64,000 nucleotides of DNA. Source: an archaeon. GTDB taxonomy: Archaea > Nanobdellota > Nanobdellia > Woesearchaeales > GW2011-AR9. Location: contig JAHFQW010000004.1 of NCBI GenBank assembly GCA_023259115.1, positions 12,768 through 76,767 on the forward strand, given 5' to 3'. Each line of letters starts with the position of its first letter. The stretch's first letter is position 1. The notes beneath the pieces are model-generated. The model did no database searches. It worked only from the letters and a program-made list of their open reading frames with translations, and had not been told where the DNA came from. Position numbers and translations under genes: made by a program. Of this stretch, positions 4,420-64,000 are shown piece by piece.

Positions 4420-4510
4420 TAGTAAATTGCCCTGAAACCAAACATCCTAGGCAATTTCTATATATTGAAATTCGCAACATTTTGTTCGATTTCTTGCGAA
4501 TTTCACTATA
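4420..4510. repeat. intergenic two-hairpin repeat, copy A (family 1)
   Basis: TAGTAAATTGCC...GGCAATTT forms hairpin 1 (4424..4457). GAAATTCGCAA-cattttgttcgatttc-TTGCGAATTTC forms hairpin 2 (4467..4504). Ends CACTATA. Confidence 0.7.
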
Positions 4511-4665
4511 ATTATAGTAAACTACACAGTTACGCGTCAAACAATACCTACTGCGACAATTATATCATTCAATACATCACATGATTTCTCAACTTATAAT
4601 CTTATGCTTTATAAAGCCATCGTACTGAGACATTTTGGTCAAACTACCTTTTTCAAATTACAGTA

Positions 4666-4718
4666 ATCACTTTAAAGTAACAAAATAAACGAAACATTTA
4701 TATATAAGCCTCACTTTT
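4666..4718 (+). promoter_or_regulatory. shared promoter module, copy a (upstream motif plus BRE/TATA)
   Basis: TCACTTTAAAGTAACAAAATAAACGAAACATTTATATATAAGCCTCACTT. The TATA box TTTATATA is preceded by BRE-like CGAAA, ~80 nt upstream of the 4790 ATG. Confidence 0.6.
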
Positions 4719-4789
4719 AGGACAATATCAAGATAAAAACATCAAAATACCATAAATTATAAATACACAAAAGAGAGGTATACCCAACC

Positions 4790-7476: not shown

Positions 7477-7524
7477 TATAGAGGACTTTGAATAACCCAT
7501 ATACTCCTCAAAATTCAAAGTCCT
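7477..7524. mobile_element. related short palindromic element (variant core), immediately adjacent to the previous one
   Basis: TAGAGGACTTTGAAT ... ATTCAAAGTCCT forms a 12-bp perfect inverted repeat. A second copy lies at 62678..62726. Confidence 0.55.
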
Positions 7525-7575
7525 TCTTAGAGGGGTTTGACAAGTTTTATAGGGTTAATCAAACCCCTCTATATC
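7525..7575. mobile_element. short (~50 bp) internally deleted MITE derivative
   Basis: TAGAGGGGTTTGA...TCAAACCCCTCTA is a perfect 13-bp inverted repeat flanking CAAGTTTTATAGGGTTAA, the same internal ends as the full-length element. Confidence 0.65.
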
Positions 7576-7769
7576 TAGCATCTCAATCAACACAAAACCA
7601 AAAAAACAGAGTGCCCGCCCTCTCTTGCAAGAGAACGGACACCTTCCTTGGCGGAAGTGGAAACTATACTCACTCGCATAAATAATTGAGCAATACTTGC
7701 TCGTTCGTAATAAGCAAAGAACATATCTATTGCTCAACTATTTGTGTTCTTTGCTATAATAATAAAGTA

Positions 7770-8480
7770 TCAACTAATCTTTGGCAATTCTTTTTTCACG
7801 TAATCAAGCAACGTCACAAACCCCGCCGCTCGTAATTTTCTCCCCTCCTCACGTTCAACAATATACGGCGGATTGAGCAAAAACAATTGCTTCTTCCCAT
7901 CATAGCCTAACTCGCATAACGTCTGCGCCAAAAATTTCACATCCCTCAATTCTCGTGCCACACCCTCCGTCACCGCTGCCTCAACACGATAATCTAATCC
8001 AATAAAACCACTCTTCATATCACCCACATTAATCCAGCGCACCGCATTGCCAAACACCTGCACATTGTTCTCAGGCTCCCACATCACACCGTTAAACTGC
8101 CCATCCATCGCTTCAATATGATGTGCCGTACTGCCCGCAATCATCAGCGTTCGACCAGTCTCACGTTCTGTCACACCTTTCATAAACGACATCTCGATAT
8201 ACATATCAAACGCCCGATCATTACGTTCACAACGCATCAGCACTCGTCTGCCATCAAGATTGTATCCTAGCAAATTGCCATCAATTTTATACAACCGCTC
8301 AACTCGCTCCAATCGTCTACTACGCGAAACCTCTCCGCCTTCTATTCGTCCCACTAACGCCACCAAACGTCCTTCTTCACGCACCACCGGTGGACGATAT
8401 ATCTCTCGTGGTGGTTCATAACTCACTCCACCTCCTCGCCAATCTGATTTGAAAACCATGGTAATCTCCCCATCCGCCAA
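7770..8480 (-). CDS. hypothetical protein with a C-terminal NPPY motif (possible methyltransferase-like)
   Basis: LFLLNPPYIV resembles the catalytic motif IV of N-methyltransferases, but no clear GxGxG SAM motif is visible. Confidence 0.35.
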   Translation of the reverse strand: MADGEITMVFKSDWRGGGVSYEPPREIYRPPVVREEGRLVALVGRIEGGEVSRSRRLERVERLYKIDGNLLGYNLDGRRVLMRCERNDRAFDMYIEMSFMKGVTERETGRTLMIAGSTAHHIEAMDGQFNGVMWEPENNVQVFGNAVRWINVGDMKSGFIGLDYRVEAAVTEGVARELRDVKFLAQTLCELGYDGKKQLFLLNPPYIVEREEGRKLRAAGFVTLLDYVKKELPKIS

Positions 8481-9523: not shown

Positions 9524-9625
9524 AGTCGTCTCCCTCCCGCCAAGGTATAATTTTTTTTGTTTTCATATAATTTATTTTTATTTCTTGTTTGTTTCATGTT
9601 TGGTATCTCTGGTGTTGTTATTCTA

Positions 9626-9716
9626 TAGTAAATTGCCATAGAAATCGAACATTCTAGGCAATTTCTATATCTGAAATTCGCAACATTTTGTTCGATTTCT
9701 TGCGAATTTCACTATA
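9626..9716. repeat. intergenic two-hairpin repeat, copy B (family 1)
   Basis: Same termini and an identical 47-nt right half. The hairpin-1 stem AAATTGCC/GGCAATTT is conserved with a different loop. Confidence 0.7.
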
Positions 9717-9848
9717 TTTATTCTGCTTATTCCATTTGTTTCATTTCTCATAAAAACAGATAAGCATCAGAACTATATAAAACAAAACACCGCAATATTA
9801 GTAAAAAAACACAATATTTATATAATAAACCATCTTTTTTACCATAAC

Positions 9849-12542: not shown

Positions 12543-12578
12543 TCTTATATCACCAATAATCTTTCATAATTTATCTTT

Positions 12579-12613
12579 AACATTTTGTTCGATTTCTTGC
12601 GAATATCACTATA
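12579..12613. repeat. partial copy of family 1 (right half only)
   Basis: AACATTTTGTTCGATTTCTTGCGAATATCACTATA, between the tandem paralogues. Confidence 0.55.
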
Positions 12614-12621
12614 CATTCCTA

Positions 12622-15136: not shown

Positions 15137-15341
15137 ACAAACAAGTAAAAATCCCAATCACAGCAAGCTGTGGAGTATTAGACCCATTTTCATTGAATCA
15201 AAAGATTCAAACAACAAGCCCTATTAATTCCCAGAAGCGAAATGCTGAGAAGACAGCGAACTTTAGGGGCAAAGCGACGAAGAATTTTTTGTTTTTGAGA
15301 AAATATTGTATCGAACACAGTGAGTCTATAACTTAAAGCCC

Positions 15342-17630: not shown

Positions 17631-17799
17631 GCACCGGTTGTATAATGGCTATTATGCCGGCCTTCCATGTACGAAGGCCCGACTGCCTAACTGAGGCAAG
17701 CCGGTGATCCGGGTTCGAAAGAAGAGGTTTCGCGTAGAAAATCCAATTGGTTAGCATCCTAGATGTCGTAAAACCTGTCTCGAAAGTCCCGGCCGGTGC
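17631..17799 (+). tRNA. tRNA-Gly (anticodon TCC) with two introns. Intron 1 is at the canonical 37/38 position (17668..17698). Intron 2 is in the T-loop after position 60 (17721..17786).
   Basis: Acceptor GCACCGG/CCGGTGC plus A73. D-arm with GG. Anticodon stem CCGGC/GCCGG with loop CTTCCA|A. T-stem CCGGG/CCCGG with T-loop TTCGAAA. The 3' T-stem strand only appears 66 nt downstream. Confidence 0.7.
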
Positions 17800-17929
17800 A
17801 TCATTTTACATTCATCTATTTCTAAAAACACTCCTCTCAACAAACCTCCCCCAGATTCTTTTAAATAATACCCACTTCAGAATAAAAACAACCACATTTA
17901 TATACTAATAGTTATTACTCTTAAAAAAA

Positions 17930-22938: not shown

Positions 22939-23070
22939 AGAGGAGCTTCACCTATAAAAATCACTTGCCTATTTGAACACTTGAAACGATTTTTAACCTT
23001 GAAAATGGTTTTTTGCATTTTCATAAAATTGGATATAGTTATTCAACCACTTTATAATATCAAAAGAAGA
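22939..23070. mobile_element. second full-length but degenerate copy of the same MITE-like element
   Basis: Cargo 22965..23035 is ~90% identical to 62899..62970. The left TIR is degenerate (AGAGGAGCTTCAC) and the right end is eroded. Confidence 0.55.
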
Positions 23071-24247: not shown

Positions 24248-24484
24248 AGATTTAAATCTTTCTCAGAAAAAATCCTCAAACCTTCCTCAACACTAACAAC
24301 AATAACTCACCTCTCTGCCACGATATTAATACGATTTGCCTGCCGTTTTTGTTTTGCCCCTCATCAATTCAATATCACACATCCCATTAGGAATTACCAC
24401 ATATCCTTTTCCCACACCAAAACAAGTTCAGCCATACAAGTCCGAAAGTACTACTAGTAGAATGAGAGGGAGAGCTATAATAAT

Positions 24485-24529
24485 TACTAAAAAGTAACAA
24501 AATAAACCAAAGATTTAAATATAAGTGAC
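24485..24529 (+). promoter_or_regulatory. shared promoter module, copy b
   Basis: ACTAAAAAGTAACAAAATAAACCAAAGATTTAAATATAAGTGACT, followed by the leader AAAAACAAACAGAGAAAAACAAAA-ATG (24594). Confidence 0.55.
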
Positions 24530-24645
24530 TAATTTAAAGAATAATCAGAAAAAAATCATCTTAATTATTAAAAACAAACAGAGAAAAACAAAAATGACAC
24601 AACTACCCCCCCTCATTAGAAATTCTTGTAGCCTCAGATGTACAT

Positions 24646-33306: not shown

Positions 33307-33430
33307 GAAAGAACGCCATCATCATTAGCCCAAACTCAATTAGACATAACTATTATTATTGTTCTAATAGTTGACTTTTCCCGTAATTGTGTAATAAAAC
33401 ATATGGTCAAAAGTAGAAAAGAGTTATTTG

Positions 33431-33480
33431 TCACTAAAAAGTAACAAAATAAACGAAACATTTATATATAAGCCTCACTT
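33431..33480 (+). promoter_or_regulatory. shared promoter module, copy c (identical to copy a over 43 nt)
   Basis: TCACTAAAAAGTAACAAAATAAACGAAACATTTATATATAAGCCTCACTT, ending 12 nt before the methyltransferase ATG. Confidence 0.6.
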
Positions 33481-33491
33481 TACATCTAAAA

Positions 33492-34109
33492 ATGACATAC
33501 GCACTAACCGTTTTAACCGACACCGCAGAAATACAAAGACGTGGAAAACAAATTGATCCAATAGGATATAGCACTATCGCCCAAATATTTCACGCCAATC
33601 TATTGGGATTAGAAGAACAAACCAACGCTCGCGTACTTGAAATCGGCGGAGCAAAATATGAAAACCTCGCTCTATATTTTCAAAAAAGAGGAGCACAATA
33701 TCATAACGTAACGCTCGATCGAGAATGTCAAAATATGCCAAATACCACCATAGACAGCTACACTAAATACTCTCCTTGCAAACCTTTTGATTTAATCCTA
33801 TCCAACGGTGTCTTTGAACAATATGCATTAGATCGTAGCCTTAGCATGGATCGTTTAGAATATCAGAACTGGATGGCAGGGATCAAATACAGAACCCCCC
33901 AATATAATCTGCAAAAACTCCAAAAACTCTACCAACTCACAAAACCGCAAGGAAGAATTATCATCAACACTATTGCCGACCCCTGTATTTTTTCAAGCGA
34001 CGAAATACGCACCGCCGGATTTCACATCGCATATCGAGAAATCAAAAACATATATAATCCAGATTCCTCATGCAGCGAAGGCGAACTACTCATCCTCCAA
34101 AAACCATAA
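33492..34109 (+). CDS. class I SAM-dependent methyltransferase
   Basis: Motif I RVLEIGGAKYENLALYF, motif DLILSNGVFE and LTKPQGRIIINT. Shared promoter module ends 12 nt upstream, so the transcript is probably leaderless. Confidence 0.6.
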   Translation: MTYALTVLTDTAEIQRRGKQIDPIGYSTIAQIFHANLLGLEEQTNARVLEIGGAKYENLALYFQKRGAQYHNVTLDRECQNMPNTTIDSYTKYSPCKPFDLILSNGVFEQYALDRSLSMDRLEYQNWMAGIKYRTPQYNLQKLQKLYQLTKPQGRIIINTIADPCIFSSDEIRTAGFHIAYREIKNIYNPDSSCSEGELLILQKP

Positions 34110-34126
34110 ACACACCACCACCAAAA

Positions 34127-34597
34127 ATGAACACCTTCCAACAATGCCTGGACCAAAAAAAAGTACAATATAGTGTCAGCGGCTCTTCATTTTATCTGCC
34201 TGCAGAAGTCAATTTAGAACAAATTCTCCAAACAATCAATGGCCGATACGAAAGTACAAGTGAATTTGCCGTAGCAGAAAAAAATACCATGGATGTATAC
34301 CGCATTACCAACCCGATTGAAACAACTGATCATGGTCTCAAAACCTCAGAGATTCAAGTTATAAACTACCTAGAAAGAGGCCGTAACCAAAGTCTTATTG
34401 ATGAAAAAGTAGGAACAGACCTAGTTGTAAAAACAGAACTAAAAATCCACGCGGGCTATGGAGTACACAGCACATTGGGAGAAAATATAGCTCTCACCAT
34501 TATGGAAGAACTTCTAAAGCAAAATATACCCGCCACCTACATCACAACCATCGATTTAGTCAGAGGAAGAATCACTGCGTATCACAAGAAACCATAA
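34127..34597 (+). CDS. hypothetical protein, tandem duplicate 1
   Basis: MNTFQQCLDQKKVQYSVSGS... ~75% identical to the next ORF. Start set to the internal Met that matches the paralogue start. Confidence 0.55.
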   Translation: MNTFQQCLDQKKVQYSVSGSSFYLPAEVNLEQILQTINGRYESTSEFAVAEKNTMDVYRITNPIETTDHGLKTSEIQVINYLERGRNQSLIDEKVGTDLVVKTELKIHAGYGVHSTLGENIALTIMEELLKQNIPATYITTIDLVRGRITAYHKKP

Positions 34598-34614
34598 ACA
34601 CACAACCACCAAAA

Positions 34615-35076
34615 ATGAACACCTTCCAACAATGCCTGGACCAAAAAAAAGTACAATATAGTGTCAGCGGCTCTTTCTTTTATTTGCCTGCAGAAGTCAA
34701 TTTAGAACAAATTCTCCAAACAATCAATGCTCAATACGAAAGGACAACTACAGAGAGTAACCGAACCATAAACGTATATCATGTTACCAACCCTATTGAA
34801 ACAACTGATCCTGGTCTAAAAACCTCACAGATTGCAATTATAAACTACCTAGAGAGAGGCCGTAACCAAAGTCTCATTGATCAAACAGTAGGAACAGACC
34901 TAGTTGTAAAAACAGAACTACAAATCCACGCGGGCTATGGAGAACACACTACATTGGGAGAAAATATCGCTCTCACCATTATGGAAGAACTTCTAGAGCA
35001 AAATATATCCGCTGCCTATATCACATCCATTGATTTAATGTTAGGAAGAATCACTGCGTATCACAAGAAAGAATAA
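34615..35076 (+). CDS. hypothetical protein, tandem duplicate 2
   Basis: Near-identical N-terminus and an identical ribosome-binding region (ACCACCAAAAATG) to the upstream paralogue. Confidence 0.55.
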   Translation: MNTFQQCLDQKKVQYSVSGSFFYLPAEVNLEQILQTINAQYERTTTESNRTINVYHVTNPIETTDPGLKTSQIAIINYLERGRNQSLIDQTVGTDLVVKTELQIHAGYGEHTTLGENIALTIMEELLEQNISAAYITSIDLMLGRITAYHKKE

Positions 35077-47682: not shown

Positions 47683-47834
47683 CGGGCCGGACGGGACTGT
47701 CTCAACACGTCGCAATTGCTCCATGCTGTTTCGAACCCGCGACCGCTTGATAGCTTCTGTCTGTTATGACATCTCTGTCACAAGACCCACTTGACGTAAA
47801 AGTCAAGCGCTCTACCAAGCTGAGCTACCGGCCC
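47683..47834 (-). tRNA. tRNA-Lys (anticodon TTT) with two introns. Intron 1 is at 37/38 (47752..47796). Intron 2 is in the T-loop (47696..47728).
   Basis: Acceptor GGGCCGG/CCGGCCC plus G73. D-arm GCTC-AGCTTGGTA-GAGC. Anticodon stem CTTGA/TCAAG with loop CTTTTA|A. The intron carries GTCAAG, which can pair with the anticodon region. T-stem GCGGG/CCCGT (G-U) with T-loop TTCGAAA. Confidence 0.7.
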
Positions 47835-47837
47835 ATA

Positions 47838-47986
47838 CGCCTTGGCCGGGACTTTCACACCAACACATTAAGTGTAATAGGTATTCGAACCCGGGTCGGG
47901 GCCTTTCTTAAGCAGCATGGAAATAAGTATGAACCCTTCCACCCACCTCGACAGGGCCCCATGCTAGGCCGCTACACTACCAAGGC
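47838..47986 (-). tRNA. tRNA-Asp (anticodon GTC) with two introns. Intron 1 is at 37/38 (47905..47948). Intron 2 is in the T-loop (47851..47882).
   Basis: Acceptor GCCTTGG/CCAAGGC plus G73. D-loop AGCGGCCTA. Anticodon stem GGGCC/GGCCC with loop CTGTCG|A. T-stem CCGGG/CCCGG with T-loop TTCGAAT. Only 3 nt separate it from tRNA-Lys. Confidence 0.7.
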
Positions 47987-48490
47987 AACACTGACAGCAT
48001 ATCCCCTATCGACGAAAATCCTATGAAAAAGATAACTCGATGTAGAATAGCGTGGCCATGTTTGAACGTAAAAACGGGGGTTTACTTATAAAGCTTTCGC
48101 TCAAACATTCAAAATACATATACTGCATTATAGTAAATCCCCCCAGCGTTCAAACAAAATCATCAAATCTATCGAACATCAACCAAACAAAATTTAAAAA
48201 AGAGGAAGAGATGAAATCATCATCTTCCTCCCTGAGTCCCCCCTCCCAGAATCGAATTTCCCAAACAATACCAAATTTTTTTATTAAATTTTGTTAAAGT
48301 TTACCGGGGATCTCTCGGTCTCAGCTGACTCTTAATCATCACAGTCATTGACATATCATAAGAGTTTCTACAGCCGAGCGTTCTAGCCGCTAAACTAAGG
48401 GGGGATACTCGATAAAAACAAGAAATGATTTATAAAACTTTGTATAGAGTACTTTAAATAATTCATTATTTTATCAAAATTGAAAGTACT

Positions 48491-48542
48491 TCTTAGAGGG
48501 GTTTGAAGAATTTTAGATGGTTAATCAAACCCATTTATAGAG
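48491..48542. mobile_element. short MITE derivative with an eroded right terminal inverted repeat
   Basis: TAGAGGGGTTTGA-AGAATTTTAGATGGTTAA-TCAAACCCATTTATA. Confidence 0.5.
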
Positions 48543-62533: not shown

Positions 62534-62677
62534 AACCTATATAATCATTTATCTTCCTAAAGACAATATATCTAAAACATCTATTTGAAAACACACATAA
62601 TTGATTCAAAAACACAATCACAACAGTTTCAGGGAATTAAACCCATTTTCATTGAATCAAACCTCTTCCTTTTCTCC

Positions 62678-62726
62678 ATAGAGGACTTTGAATAACCCAT
62701 ATATTCATCAATATTCAAAGTCTACC
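62678..62726. mobile_element. short palindromic element of variant type 1
   Basis: TAGAGGACTTTGAATAACCCATATATTCATCAATATTCAAAGTCTACC is near-identical to 7479..7524. Confidence 0.55.
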
Positions 62727-62877
62727 AAAAGACCTAATTTCTTATAATGATAGTTATGTCTTTTGTAGATACGAGAAAATAAGAAACAACTTATTTTCTG
62801 TACAGAAAACAAATCGTTTTTGTTTTCTTGTACAACGGACAGAACTATTGATATTATTATTTCTGTCCGTTGGTATC

Positions 62878-63000
62878 CTTCTTAGAGGAGTTTGACAAGT
62901 AAAAATCACTTGCCTATTTGAACACTTGAGGTGATTTTTACTCTTGAAAATGGTTTTTGCATTTTCATTGAGTTTTATAGGGTTAATCAAACTCCTCTAT
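62878..63000. mobile_element. full-length MITE-like element (~123 bp) with 13-bp terminal inverted repeats and a structured internal cargo
   Basis: The TIRs TAGAGGAGTTTGA (62883..62895) and TCAAACTCCTCTA (62987..62999) are a perfect inverted repeat. The cargo 62899..62970 contains the AAAAATCAC...GTGATTTTT hairpin. Confidence 0.7.
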
Positions 63001-64000
63001 AAAAACTCATCTCATCGGTCTTCTCATTAACATATATCTTTTCATTATCAGACACAATGCCTAACCCAAACTTCTCCCTCCACTCAGGATGCTCTTCCAA
63101 AAACCGCTTGCGCGTCAATTCTGGCATATAATCAATCGAACCTTTGCCCGATAACCCCGTCTGTGGTGTCTTCTTCAAATAATCATCCACTCCAAATTCT
63201 TTACCTGAATTAGCCAGCTCCGCAAAGCGAGGAAAATCAATCCATGTATACCAGCCATCTACTTTTTTAAACTTTTTCTTCGCAAACAACACCACACGTG
63301 ACGCAATATGTTCCGACATAATCTCATATTCAGGTAAAAACTTCGCAAATATAAGACAAAACGCCACCACTTCCTCATGCAACGCCATATTATCCTTGCT
63401 CAAACGCTGTTGTGACGGACCAACATGCATATATGATTTCACTTCAATAAAATCAGGACTCCCCATCTCAACAAGCCCAGCATACTTATCCAAATCAACA
63501 TCATTAATTCCTTTAATGAGAGTCATACGAATACACGTTCGCTGCTTCTTCTCAGATAAATACTTCAGAGATAAAAGCATCCGCTCCCAATAATCAGAAA
63601 ACAGCGGCACATCCACCTCTTTCAATAACTCTTTGGTTGGCGCATCCACACTGCAATACAACTGCGTAATCGGTTTCAGATTCTTAATATGTTCGGGATA
63701 CTGCGAATTCGTTACTAAAAACGTCGAAATCCCCTGTGCATGAAATCCATCAATGAGCTCATTCATCTTAGGATACGTAATCGGTTCCCCCGTCAACGAC
63801 AACGCCACATGCTTCACCTGTTTTGACTTCTCATAGGACGCCTTGTTCGCCCGATGCGACCCGCCAAACCCTACCAATAACTTATGATGCGCTCGCAAAC
63901 TCTCAGTTAAAATCATCTCTGGCTCATCAACCTTCCACATCCACTCTTTTGCCACAGGCGCTTTATACCCCCGCCAGCAAAACGTACATCTATTCGCACA
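62987..64000 (-). CDS. taw1: tRNA 4-demethylwyosine synthase Taw1/TYW1 (radical SAM). The 5' end continues past the window edge.
   Basis: The frame is open to position 64000, which encodes CANRCTFCWRG (CxxxCxxC). SLTGEPITYPK, ISTFLVTNSQYPE and QLYCSVDAPTKELLKEVD match TYW1. The last four codons and the stop lie inside a MITE terminal inverted repeat. Confidence 0.8.
   Translation of the reverse strand, partial: CANRCTFCWRGYKAPVAKEWMWKVDEPEMILTESLRAHHKLLVGFGGSHRANKASYEKSKQVKHVALSLTGEPITYPKMNELIDGFHAQGISTFLVTNSQYPEHIKNLKPITQLYCSVDAPTKELLKEVDVPLFSDYWERMLLSLKYLSEKKQRTCIRMTLIKGINDVDLDKYAGLVEMGSPDFIEVKSYMHVGPSQQRLSKDNMALHEEVVAFCLIFAKFLPEYEIMSEHIASRVVLFAKKKFKKVDGWYTWIDFPRFAELANSGKEFGVDDYLKKTPQTGLSGKGSIDYMPELTRKRFLEEHPEWREKFGLGIVSDNEKIYVNEKTDEMSFYRGV

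Follow-up and report, generated by a model that had tools for sequence, protein, structure and literature searches.

The last codons of taw1, the gene for the tRNA-modification enzyme 4-demethylwyosine synthase, lie within one arm of an inverted repeat in the 64-kb stretch of DNA analysed here (in the following, the window). This raises the questions of what kind of repeat has reached the end of a conserved gene, what could have moved it there, and what the gene looked like before. Homologues of Taw1 place the window in a genome of the Woesearchaeota (DPANN), with the nearest relative being 71% identical. As argued below, the repeats of this locus are very probably a MITE that derives from both ends of an insertion sequence (IS) of the IS5 family of ~1.2 kb.

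The arms of the inverted repeat at taw1 pair perfectly over 13 nt, and similar pairs are found at two other places in the window, one of them with two mismatches in one arm (Table 1). Occurrences of the motif with up to two mismatches number 18 in the window against 5.9 expected, a count that was reached in none of 100 shuffles. A second type of hairpin (TAGAGGACTTTGAAT...), which corresponds to positions 7477-7524 and 62678-62726, always abuts the first, and the real unit is thus a 97-nt pair of hairpins, H1 and H2. Read on the minus strand, it consists of TATA, H1 (TAGAGGnnTTTGA-TTAACCC-loop-TCAAAnnCCTCTA), H2 (AGAAGGACTTTGA-loop-GGGTTATTCAAAGTCCTCTA) and again TATA. In its general form, the outer ends are TATA followed by GAGG..TTTGA(A/T)TAACCC at H1 and GGGTTATTCAAAGTCCTC followed by TATA at H2, while the middle is made up of a loop and an inverted copy of the first 13 nt, joined to an inverted copy of the last 13 nt and a second loop. 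Three such elements of ~97 nt and one decayed single-hairpin copy are present in the window, all four in the same orientation, and no further copies were found there in an HMM search. Copy 2 is older than copy 1, with which it shares 80% identity across all 97 nt (repeat finder), and one of its H1 arms has decayed (TAAATGGGTTTGA). Copy 3, taken as 328 nt, folds far better than its shuffles (z = -12.5 as DNA), and the solo H1 no longer forms a stable hairpin (z = -0.24). The MITE has no coding capacity: the unit measures 87-97 nt and the longest window copy 325 nt, and the sole ORF in copy 3 (62754-62990, 78 aa) crosses the hairpins and overlaps the stop of taw1.

Table 1. Positions of the MITE copies, their parts and the affected gene in the window
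Feature	Position	Strand	Details
Copy 1, intact 97-nt two-hairpin unit	7477-7573	minus	nhmmer 60 bits; DNA fold z = -6.1
Copy 1, core	7481-7569		TATA flanks 7477-7480 and 7570-7573
Copy 1, H1 (= IS left end), arms	7559-7571 and 7528-7540	minus	13-nt inverted repeat TAGAGGGGTTTGA (7528-7540) / TCAAACCCCTCTA (7559-7571)
Copy 1, H2 (= IS right end)	~7479-7527	minus	
Solo H1 with the same 71-nt loop module	22939-23046	minus	arms decayed (TAAAGTGGTTGA / TGAAGCTCCTCTT)
Copy 2	48443-48539	minus	nhmmer 43 bits; DNA fold z = -3.1; TATA flanks 48443-48446 and 48536-48539
Third inverted-repeat pair	48494-48506 / 48525-48537		two mismatches in one arm
Copy 3, split, swollen to 325 nt	62677-63001	minus	two nested insertions
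Copy 3, core	62681-62997		flanks CATA 62677-62680 (minus strand TATG) and TATA 62998-63001
Copy 3, H2 outer part	62681-62722	minus	93% identical to copy 1
153-nt hairpin-rich module inside copy 3 H2 inner arm	62723-62875	minus	direct repeat TC at 62721-62722 and 62876-62877
Copy 3, H1 (the 125-nt element first noticed)	62883-62999	minus	fold z = -5.8
Copy 3, H1 arms, perfect 13 nt	62883-62895 and 62987-62999		TAGAGGAGTTTGA (62883-62895) / TCAAACTCCTCTA (62987-62999)
71-nt module inside copy 3 H1 loop	62900-62970	minus	direct repeat AG at 62898-62899 and 62971-62972
taw1, 3' part (runs off the window)	62987-64000	minus	Pfam Radical_SAM + Wyosine_form; 100% identical to P0001
Relic of the former taw1 3' end	62657-62677	minus	(G)GA GAA AAG GAA GAG GTT TGA = G/R-E-K-E-E-V-stop

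The original prediction, made from the sequence of the window, had recognised a MITE family, and this is borne out by the terminal inverted repeats, a 4-bp target duplication, the dispersed copies and the termini of an IS. The copies that it had listed do sit at their positions, but the half at 48443-48490 had been missed, and the copy at 22939 has decayed arms. Its reading of the element has to be turned around: the ~50-nt pieces that were taken for deletion derivatives are instead the halves of the ~97-nt unit, of which 99 full copies have a modal length of 96-97 nt, and the 125-nt form that was taken for full-length is a derived form with a 71-nt insertion in a hairpin loop, the true full-length element being the 1.2-kb IS.

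For both modules within copy 3, the sequence that they interrupt runs continuously in copy 1. The 71-nt module consists of two small hairpins (AAAAATCAC/GTGATTTTT and GAAAATG/CATTTTC). A 29-mer from this cargo occurs exactly twice in the window, at 22956 and 62901 (0 expected), and the two cargo copies share 91% identity over 70 nt, close to the ~90% given at first. The presence of a solo H1 with the same module at 22939 indicates that H1 and module were copied as a unit. Outside the window the cargo was found only in L001, which is another assembly of the same locus; an Rfam match is also lacking, and nothing supports the earlier suggestion that the cargo could be a small RNA. The 153-nt module has the termini TACCAA...TTGGTA and is single-copy in all sequence data examined.

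Two-hairpin modules also occur in long variants of the MITE elsewhere (L014, L024, L013/L022, L035:1517-1654, L063, L099, L108, L153, L064 and L112), at a single point of the H2 inner arm (AGAnnA^nTTTGA) and with direct repeats of 2-3 nt on either side; in L014, L024, L013/L022, L035 and L063 it is the point that the 153-nt module occupies in copy 3. They comprise several distinct sequences, and one type of module defines a propagating subfamily. We had considered five independent module insertions at this H2 site but rejected them, since L035, L063, L099, L108 and L153 share one homologous module, which implies fewer events. In another variant (L028:6704-6799), H1 keeps its place but points the other way with respect to H2 when compared with an otherwise near-identical element in L020, which suggests, as far as the two sequences tell, that H1 may have been flipped by recombination between the hairpin arms.

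How the element has affected taw1 can be read from the end of the gene, TAT AGA GGA GTT TGA (YRGV-stop), whose stop codon (62987-62989) lies inside the repeat arm. The last codons fall into the duplicated TATA and the MITE terminus, with the right-hand arm of H1 carrying R, G, V and the stop, much as the original prediction, which had counted YRGV and the stop, had stated for the right terminal repeat. Woesearchaeal Taw1 proteins have in common a ...FVDEKTxELxFY motif that is followed by a variable, mostly acidic tail of 0-20 residues. When the element and one tetranucleotide are removed in silico, ...AGT TTT TAT is joined to (A/G)GA GAA AAG GAA GAG GTT TGA, and the restored tail, ...SFY(G/R)EKEEV-stop (EKTDEMSFYGEKEEV-stop), resembles those of homologues after the conserved FY (for example FYGEK). 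Since such a tail is typical of the homologues, the insertion has swapped seven codons for RGV-stop, and the earlier claim that it re-terminated the gene holds; the conserved tyrosine was kept because the target itself supplies TAT. The element-free allele is predicted to read ...AGTTTTTATRGAGAAAAGGAAGAGGTTTGA, with one TATR. A scan of metagenomes for an orthologous empty taw1 site gave 0 hits; relatives have ~70% Taw1 identity and the synteny downstream of the gene is not conserved. The insertion is shared by two other assemblies of the same population.

Two further candidates at this gene end were discarded. The distant homologues P0039 and P0048 also end in RGV, which is a coincidence, as their DNA is without a matching element. 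A location of the restored stop in the arm of an older MITE was likewise rejected: it overlaps the start of a different repeat of ~60 nt (62590-62660, just downstream of copy 3; minus strand TTGATTCAATGAAAATGGGTYTAAT...CTGYTGTGATTG), which is found again at 15150-15215 between convergent genes near 15.2 kb, with a 26-nt core that is 96% identical.

Re-termination is not limited to taw1, as in other genomes eight more copies of the MITE provide a neighbouring gene with its stop codon, a TAG or TGA from the terminus; gene and element overlap there by 5 or 15 nt. With TAG and TGA in two of its three frames, the terminus closes, within five codons, any reading frame that enters it from outside.

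The original prediction had also called for a genome-wide count of copies, and the family turned out to be multi-copy well beyond the window, with ~100 further copies of the same architecture across groundwater metagenomes and genomes of DPANN archaea. A collection of one genome per species was scanned with a single-hairpin pattern in which any base was allowed at the two central positions; this gave 38 genome loci, ~30 of them in MAGs labelled as Woese-, Pace- or Aenigmatarchaeota or as 'uncultured Methanosarcinales archaeon'; in most of these a second hairpin directly abuts the first. The MAG JACRKK01 has five loci with identical 87-nt copies on different contigs with unrelated flanks, and in general copies are near-identical within a genome and more alike there than between genomes. 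In PEYS01, three single-hairpin copies are without matching 4-nt flanks. A census of 166 loci (1.04 Mb) yielded 114 element hits, among them 99 full pairs with a modal length of 96-97 nt, a second mode at 87 nt and long forms of 130-151 nt; the outer ~22 nt are present as terminal inverted repeats (TATAGAGGnnTTTGAATAACCC and its complement) in the 99 full copies. All copies are intergenic, the flanking proteins are unrelated and none recurs beside the elements, and no transposase was detected among the ORFs adjoining the element at 10 loci, whose products are AAA ATPases, a ribosomal and a lipoprotein-like protein and the like. Orientation relative to genes is mixed (~6 copies in the same direction, ~5 opposite, ~10 between convergent and 3 between divergent genes). 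Scanning viral contigs with the hairpin pattern gave 0 hits. These are the marks of a dispersed, recently copied and non-coding repeat.

The target-site duplications that had been proposed as a check were found: outside GAGG...CCTC, 91 of 98 copies are flanked by TATA on both sides. One copy is flanked by TACA/TACA, for which a 4-bp direct duplication is the only explanation. In addition, the MITE of L084 interrupts a repeat of ~75 nt that is intact in L105, a paralogous empty site (a repeat copy) rather than an orthologous locus; it holds a single TATA that aligns to both flanks, and the overlap of the two gap-free BLAST pieces consists of just these four bases. Insertion of the element thus duplicates a 4-bp TATA target. 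The flanks of the taw1 copy are TATA/TATG, and the duplication there is imperfect by one base. Duplications of 4 bp are typical of the IS5 group, whose reported target is YTAR. Since every copy is flanked by TA, and the TATATA-like context recalls the preference of Tc1/mariner elements, one might think instead of a Stowaway-like MITE that an IS630/Tc1-mariner transposase inserts at TA, duplicating these two bases; a superficial likeness to the TA-flanked Correia and ERIC elements (PMC3184786) would go with this. Either 2-bp model, however, needs a 2-nt indel at the paralogous empty site where 4 bp fit without gaps, the TACA/TACA copy fits only a duplication of 4 bp, and the partner described below belongs to IS5 and not to IS630, so that we regard a Stowaway-like origin as extremely improbable.

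The transposase that would act on these ends was sought through the termini. As had been predicted, none is present in the window: among its 68 ORFs scanned there was neither a transposase domain nor a copy of an IS. When metagenomes were scanned for the outer 22 nt (TATAGAGGNNTTTGAATAACCC), at least 120 loci matched, and among the matches listed many lie ~100 nt from contig ends, as expected for a repeat that breaks assemblies. At one of these loci (L117), two facing termini enclose, at a distance of 1206 bp from one another, a single ORF of 331 aa (L117:7725-8720), which matches the IS5 family transposase model of NCBIfam (NF033581) with 190 bits (cut-off 140) and contains the Pfam domains DUF772 (PF05598) and DDE_Tnp_1 (PF01609). 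Homologues of this ORF (61-77% identity) adjoin the terminus in 16 of 120 loci among the matches listed, and ~14 of these 16 show both ends, TATA followed by GAGGGTTTTGAATAACCCC at one side and GGGTTATTCAAAGTCCTC followed by TATA at the other; an IS5-family partner gene in the source genome would be expected between TATAGAGG and TTTGAATAACCC. The outer 22 nt of H2 are identical to the IS right ends (GGGTTATTCAAAGTCCTCTATA) in copy 1 and decayed in copy 2, and in copy 3 the H2 outer end with its flank (62677-62680) agrees in 21 of 22 nt, the sole difference being the final base of the flank (TATG instead of TATA). In copy 1, 20 of the outer 22 nt of H1 are those of the IS left ends. A parent that carries a transposase, as had been asked for, was thereby found in metagenome contigs. 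These are archaeal and come from other species (archaeal RNA polymerase genes are present in L117, and a protein of L157 shares 66% identity with a protein from a Woesearchaeota MAG), and none of the 16 IS loci with MITE-like termini is from the genome of the window itself. A search for relatives of the transposase gave 1966 proteins at E <= 1e-30, named 'IS5 family transposase' by JGI, and many of their contigs measure 1204-1206 nt, just as long as the IS; the IS itself behaves as a multi-copy repeat.

In its single DDE transposase of ~330 aa with DUF772 and DDE_Tnp_1, its length of ~1.2 kb, its termini that begin with GA/GG and contain GAATAA, and its 4-bp target duplication, the parent resembles the IS5 group (e.g., IS5 of E. 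coli), from which it differs by its target (TATA, once TACA) and by its DPANN hosts. Like MITEs known to derive from IS5 elements, the repeat is a non-coding derivative that keeps only the ends; unlike them it is not a simple internal deletion, as each end forms a perfect hairpin of 12-13 bp by itself. From the common termini we infer that an IS5-type transposase moves the MITE.

The hairpins call for an explanation of their own. In 18 distinct copies, 94.7% of the stem cells are paired, and the pairing in H2 is unbiased because H2 lay outside the search pattern. Six pairs have changed on both sides (28 cells), and the observed covariation score was reached in 0 of 500 shuffles and by far not in slid controls. 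Real stem mismatches comprise 3 G-T against 2 A-C, and there is thus no wobble bias that would mark a transcribed strand. The left and right ends of the IS differ at two free bases (GT vs. AC), and each inner arm of the MITE complements its own outer arm; to judge from these bases, each IS end might have been copied back on itself to make its own hairpin (fold-back copying). Covariation between hairpin arms is unneeded for ordinary terminal inverted repeats and counts against a plain MITE; something additional maintains each hairpin.

Covarying arms are also expected for elements of the REP/REPIN type, pairs of inverted palindromes that transpose as hairpins of single-stranded DNA through the action of a HUH tyrosine transposase present in one copy (RAYT or IS200-type TnpA). 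The parallels go further, as each unit here is a hairpin, the units are mutually inverted and can form two separate hairpins or a single long one, a behaviour known from REP dimers (PMC3733652), nested insertions are hosted, and the copies are extragenic and often between convergent genes; the single orientation of the four window copies, in a window with uniform and strong GC skew, would also fit. HUH elements make no target duplication, however, whereas a 4-bp duplication was found here, and the termini are common with an IS5-family DDE element. No Y1 transposase or recurrent gene is near the copies in the loci examined, the head of the MITE is TAGAGG and not GTAG or CGTC, and at the other loci, with a skew too slight for a test, orientation shows no link to GC skew. 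No RAYT class has been observed in archaea, from which only the IS200-type subclass 1.1 is known (PMC6006769), and no RAYT was found beside these archaeal repeats in the loci examined. The target duplication and the DDE partner largely refute a REP/REPIN nature, which we consider very improbable.

Compensatory changes in stems across genomes and folds that are strongly non-random could equally be signs of a structured RNA or a cis-regulatory hairpin pair (a terminator, stability element or small RNA) that was spread by selection, or of a MITE that was domesticated for such a role. Many copies follow directly after stop codons, and hairpin modules are found at one fixed H2 position in several lineages. 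Nevertheless, gene-relative orientation is mixed, the almost perfectly Watson-Crick stems are free of wobble bias and loops vary freely among genomes. Termination in archaea relies on T-runs and is not known to depend on hairpins. Rfam 15 gave no hits at the gathering score across the whole window, and its E-value mode brought up sub-threshold, generic hairpin hits only, i.e., nothing above chance. A functional RNA as the nature of the repeat therefore appears improbable to us. A somewhat better case can be made for a function of the hairpin that is added to the IS5-derived MITE, with either the hairpin or cruciform form of the DNA or its transcript being used, as a folded-end intermediate of the IS5-type transposase or as a domesticated element that acts on the 3' ends of genes beside it in these tiny genomes: stems have remained paired through compensatory changes across DPANN lineages and a fixed point of H2 has repeatedly hosted hairpin modules. 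We still find this unlikely.

For the IS5-derived MITE, the following course of events can be proposed. Both ends of the IS would have been turned into hairpins of their own and joined as a unit of ~97 nt, whose common termini of ~22 nt would be recognised by an IS5-type DDE transposase encoded elsewhere. The element would insert into a TATA-like tetranucleotide that is then duplicated. As TATA-like sites are common between genes in this AT-rich genome, copies land in intergenic regions and often against gene ends. In taw1 it landed seven codons before the original stop, exchanging G/R-EKEEV for RGV and leaving the old tail ~320 nt further downstream. Afterwards, two unrelated small hairpin modules were probably inserted into copy 3, and the form with the 71-nt module may have been copied once more, to 22939.

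The Correia elements of Neisseria, ERIC, the Sulfolobus elements SM1-SM4 and haloarchaeal MITEs are comparable in their size of ~100-150 nt, terminal inverted repeats, AT-rich duplicated targets and intergenic locations, often touching gene ends with reading-frame fusions possible, but differ from our elements in sequence, parent IS family and hosts. Reviews of archaeal MITEs deal with Sulfolobus, haloarchaea and some further groups but name no DPANN lineage, and a bulk census gives 105 MITEs per Mb for one Woesearchaeal genome without describing families (PMC11602168). A description of a DPANN-specific MITE was not found in the literature searched, and the motif appeared in no relevant paper of our search. 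The family is thus newly characterised, while the kind of element is ordinary and our thinking on how such elements work is unchanged by it. It provides a clean archaeal case of a MITE that rewrites the C-terminus of a conserved tRNA-modification enzyme, and a parent transposase family can now be named for an abundant small repeat of DPANN archaea. Their genomes are nearly all fragmented MAGs, with many contigs breaking at the MITE, and masking of the family should improve the calling of gene ends and assembly.

Some other features of the window and of related loci deserve mention. GC skew amounts to -0.22 to -0.46 in every 4-kb bin of the window (1-64000), far stronger than the replication skew typical of prokaryotes. 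The skew of the coding strand at third codon positions ranges from -0.70 to -0.83 in plus-strand genes and from +0.65 to +0.88 in minus-strand genes, which means that the plus strand is C-rich whatever the direction of the gene. Two independent assemblies (L001 and L002) show the skew as well, and the relatives L003, L004, L043 and L045 are free of it (|skew| < 0.07). Its sign is constant across the window, and Pfam identified the origin-associated OapB and OapC among the ORFs of 573-24969.

Three tRNA-like genes at ~47690-47992 (minus) and ~17633-17808 (plus) are missed by ARAGORN and Rfam and were read by eye; they apparently have several introns, one of them inside the T-loop right after GGTTCGAA and before AGTCCCGG, and one gene has a Lys (TTT) anticodon stem-loop. 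A repeat of ~90 nt with AAAGTAACAAAATAAACGAAACATTTATATATAAG (4659-4748, 24476-24565 and 33423-33512) looks like a shared strong archaeal promoter (BRE and TATA box). A tandem duplication of ~480 nt at 34101-35064 (89-95% identity) spans two adjacent paralogous ORFs. The stretch between copy 1 and the upstream gene (7574-7770, minus) is relatively GC-rich, ends in a hairpin and a T-run (GTGTCCGTTCTCTTGCAAGAGAGGGCGGGCAC TCTGTTTTTTT) and has no Rfam match; by these features it could be an unannotated small RNA.

Finally, a small repeat family with internal inverted repeats (TGAAATTCGCAACATTTTGTTCGATTTCTTGCGAATTTCA) that is unrelated to the MITE occurs at 837-887, 4434-4515, 9620-9721 and 12569-12618. 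Another TATA-flanked hairpin repeat of ~100 nt (TATAGTAAAAGACAGAAATTTTTCC...GTCCTTGACTATA) is present in L063:1-560, on both sides of the MITE, and in L099:~1000-1120, and DPANN genomes may hold several small families that target TATA.
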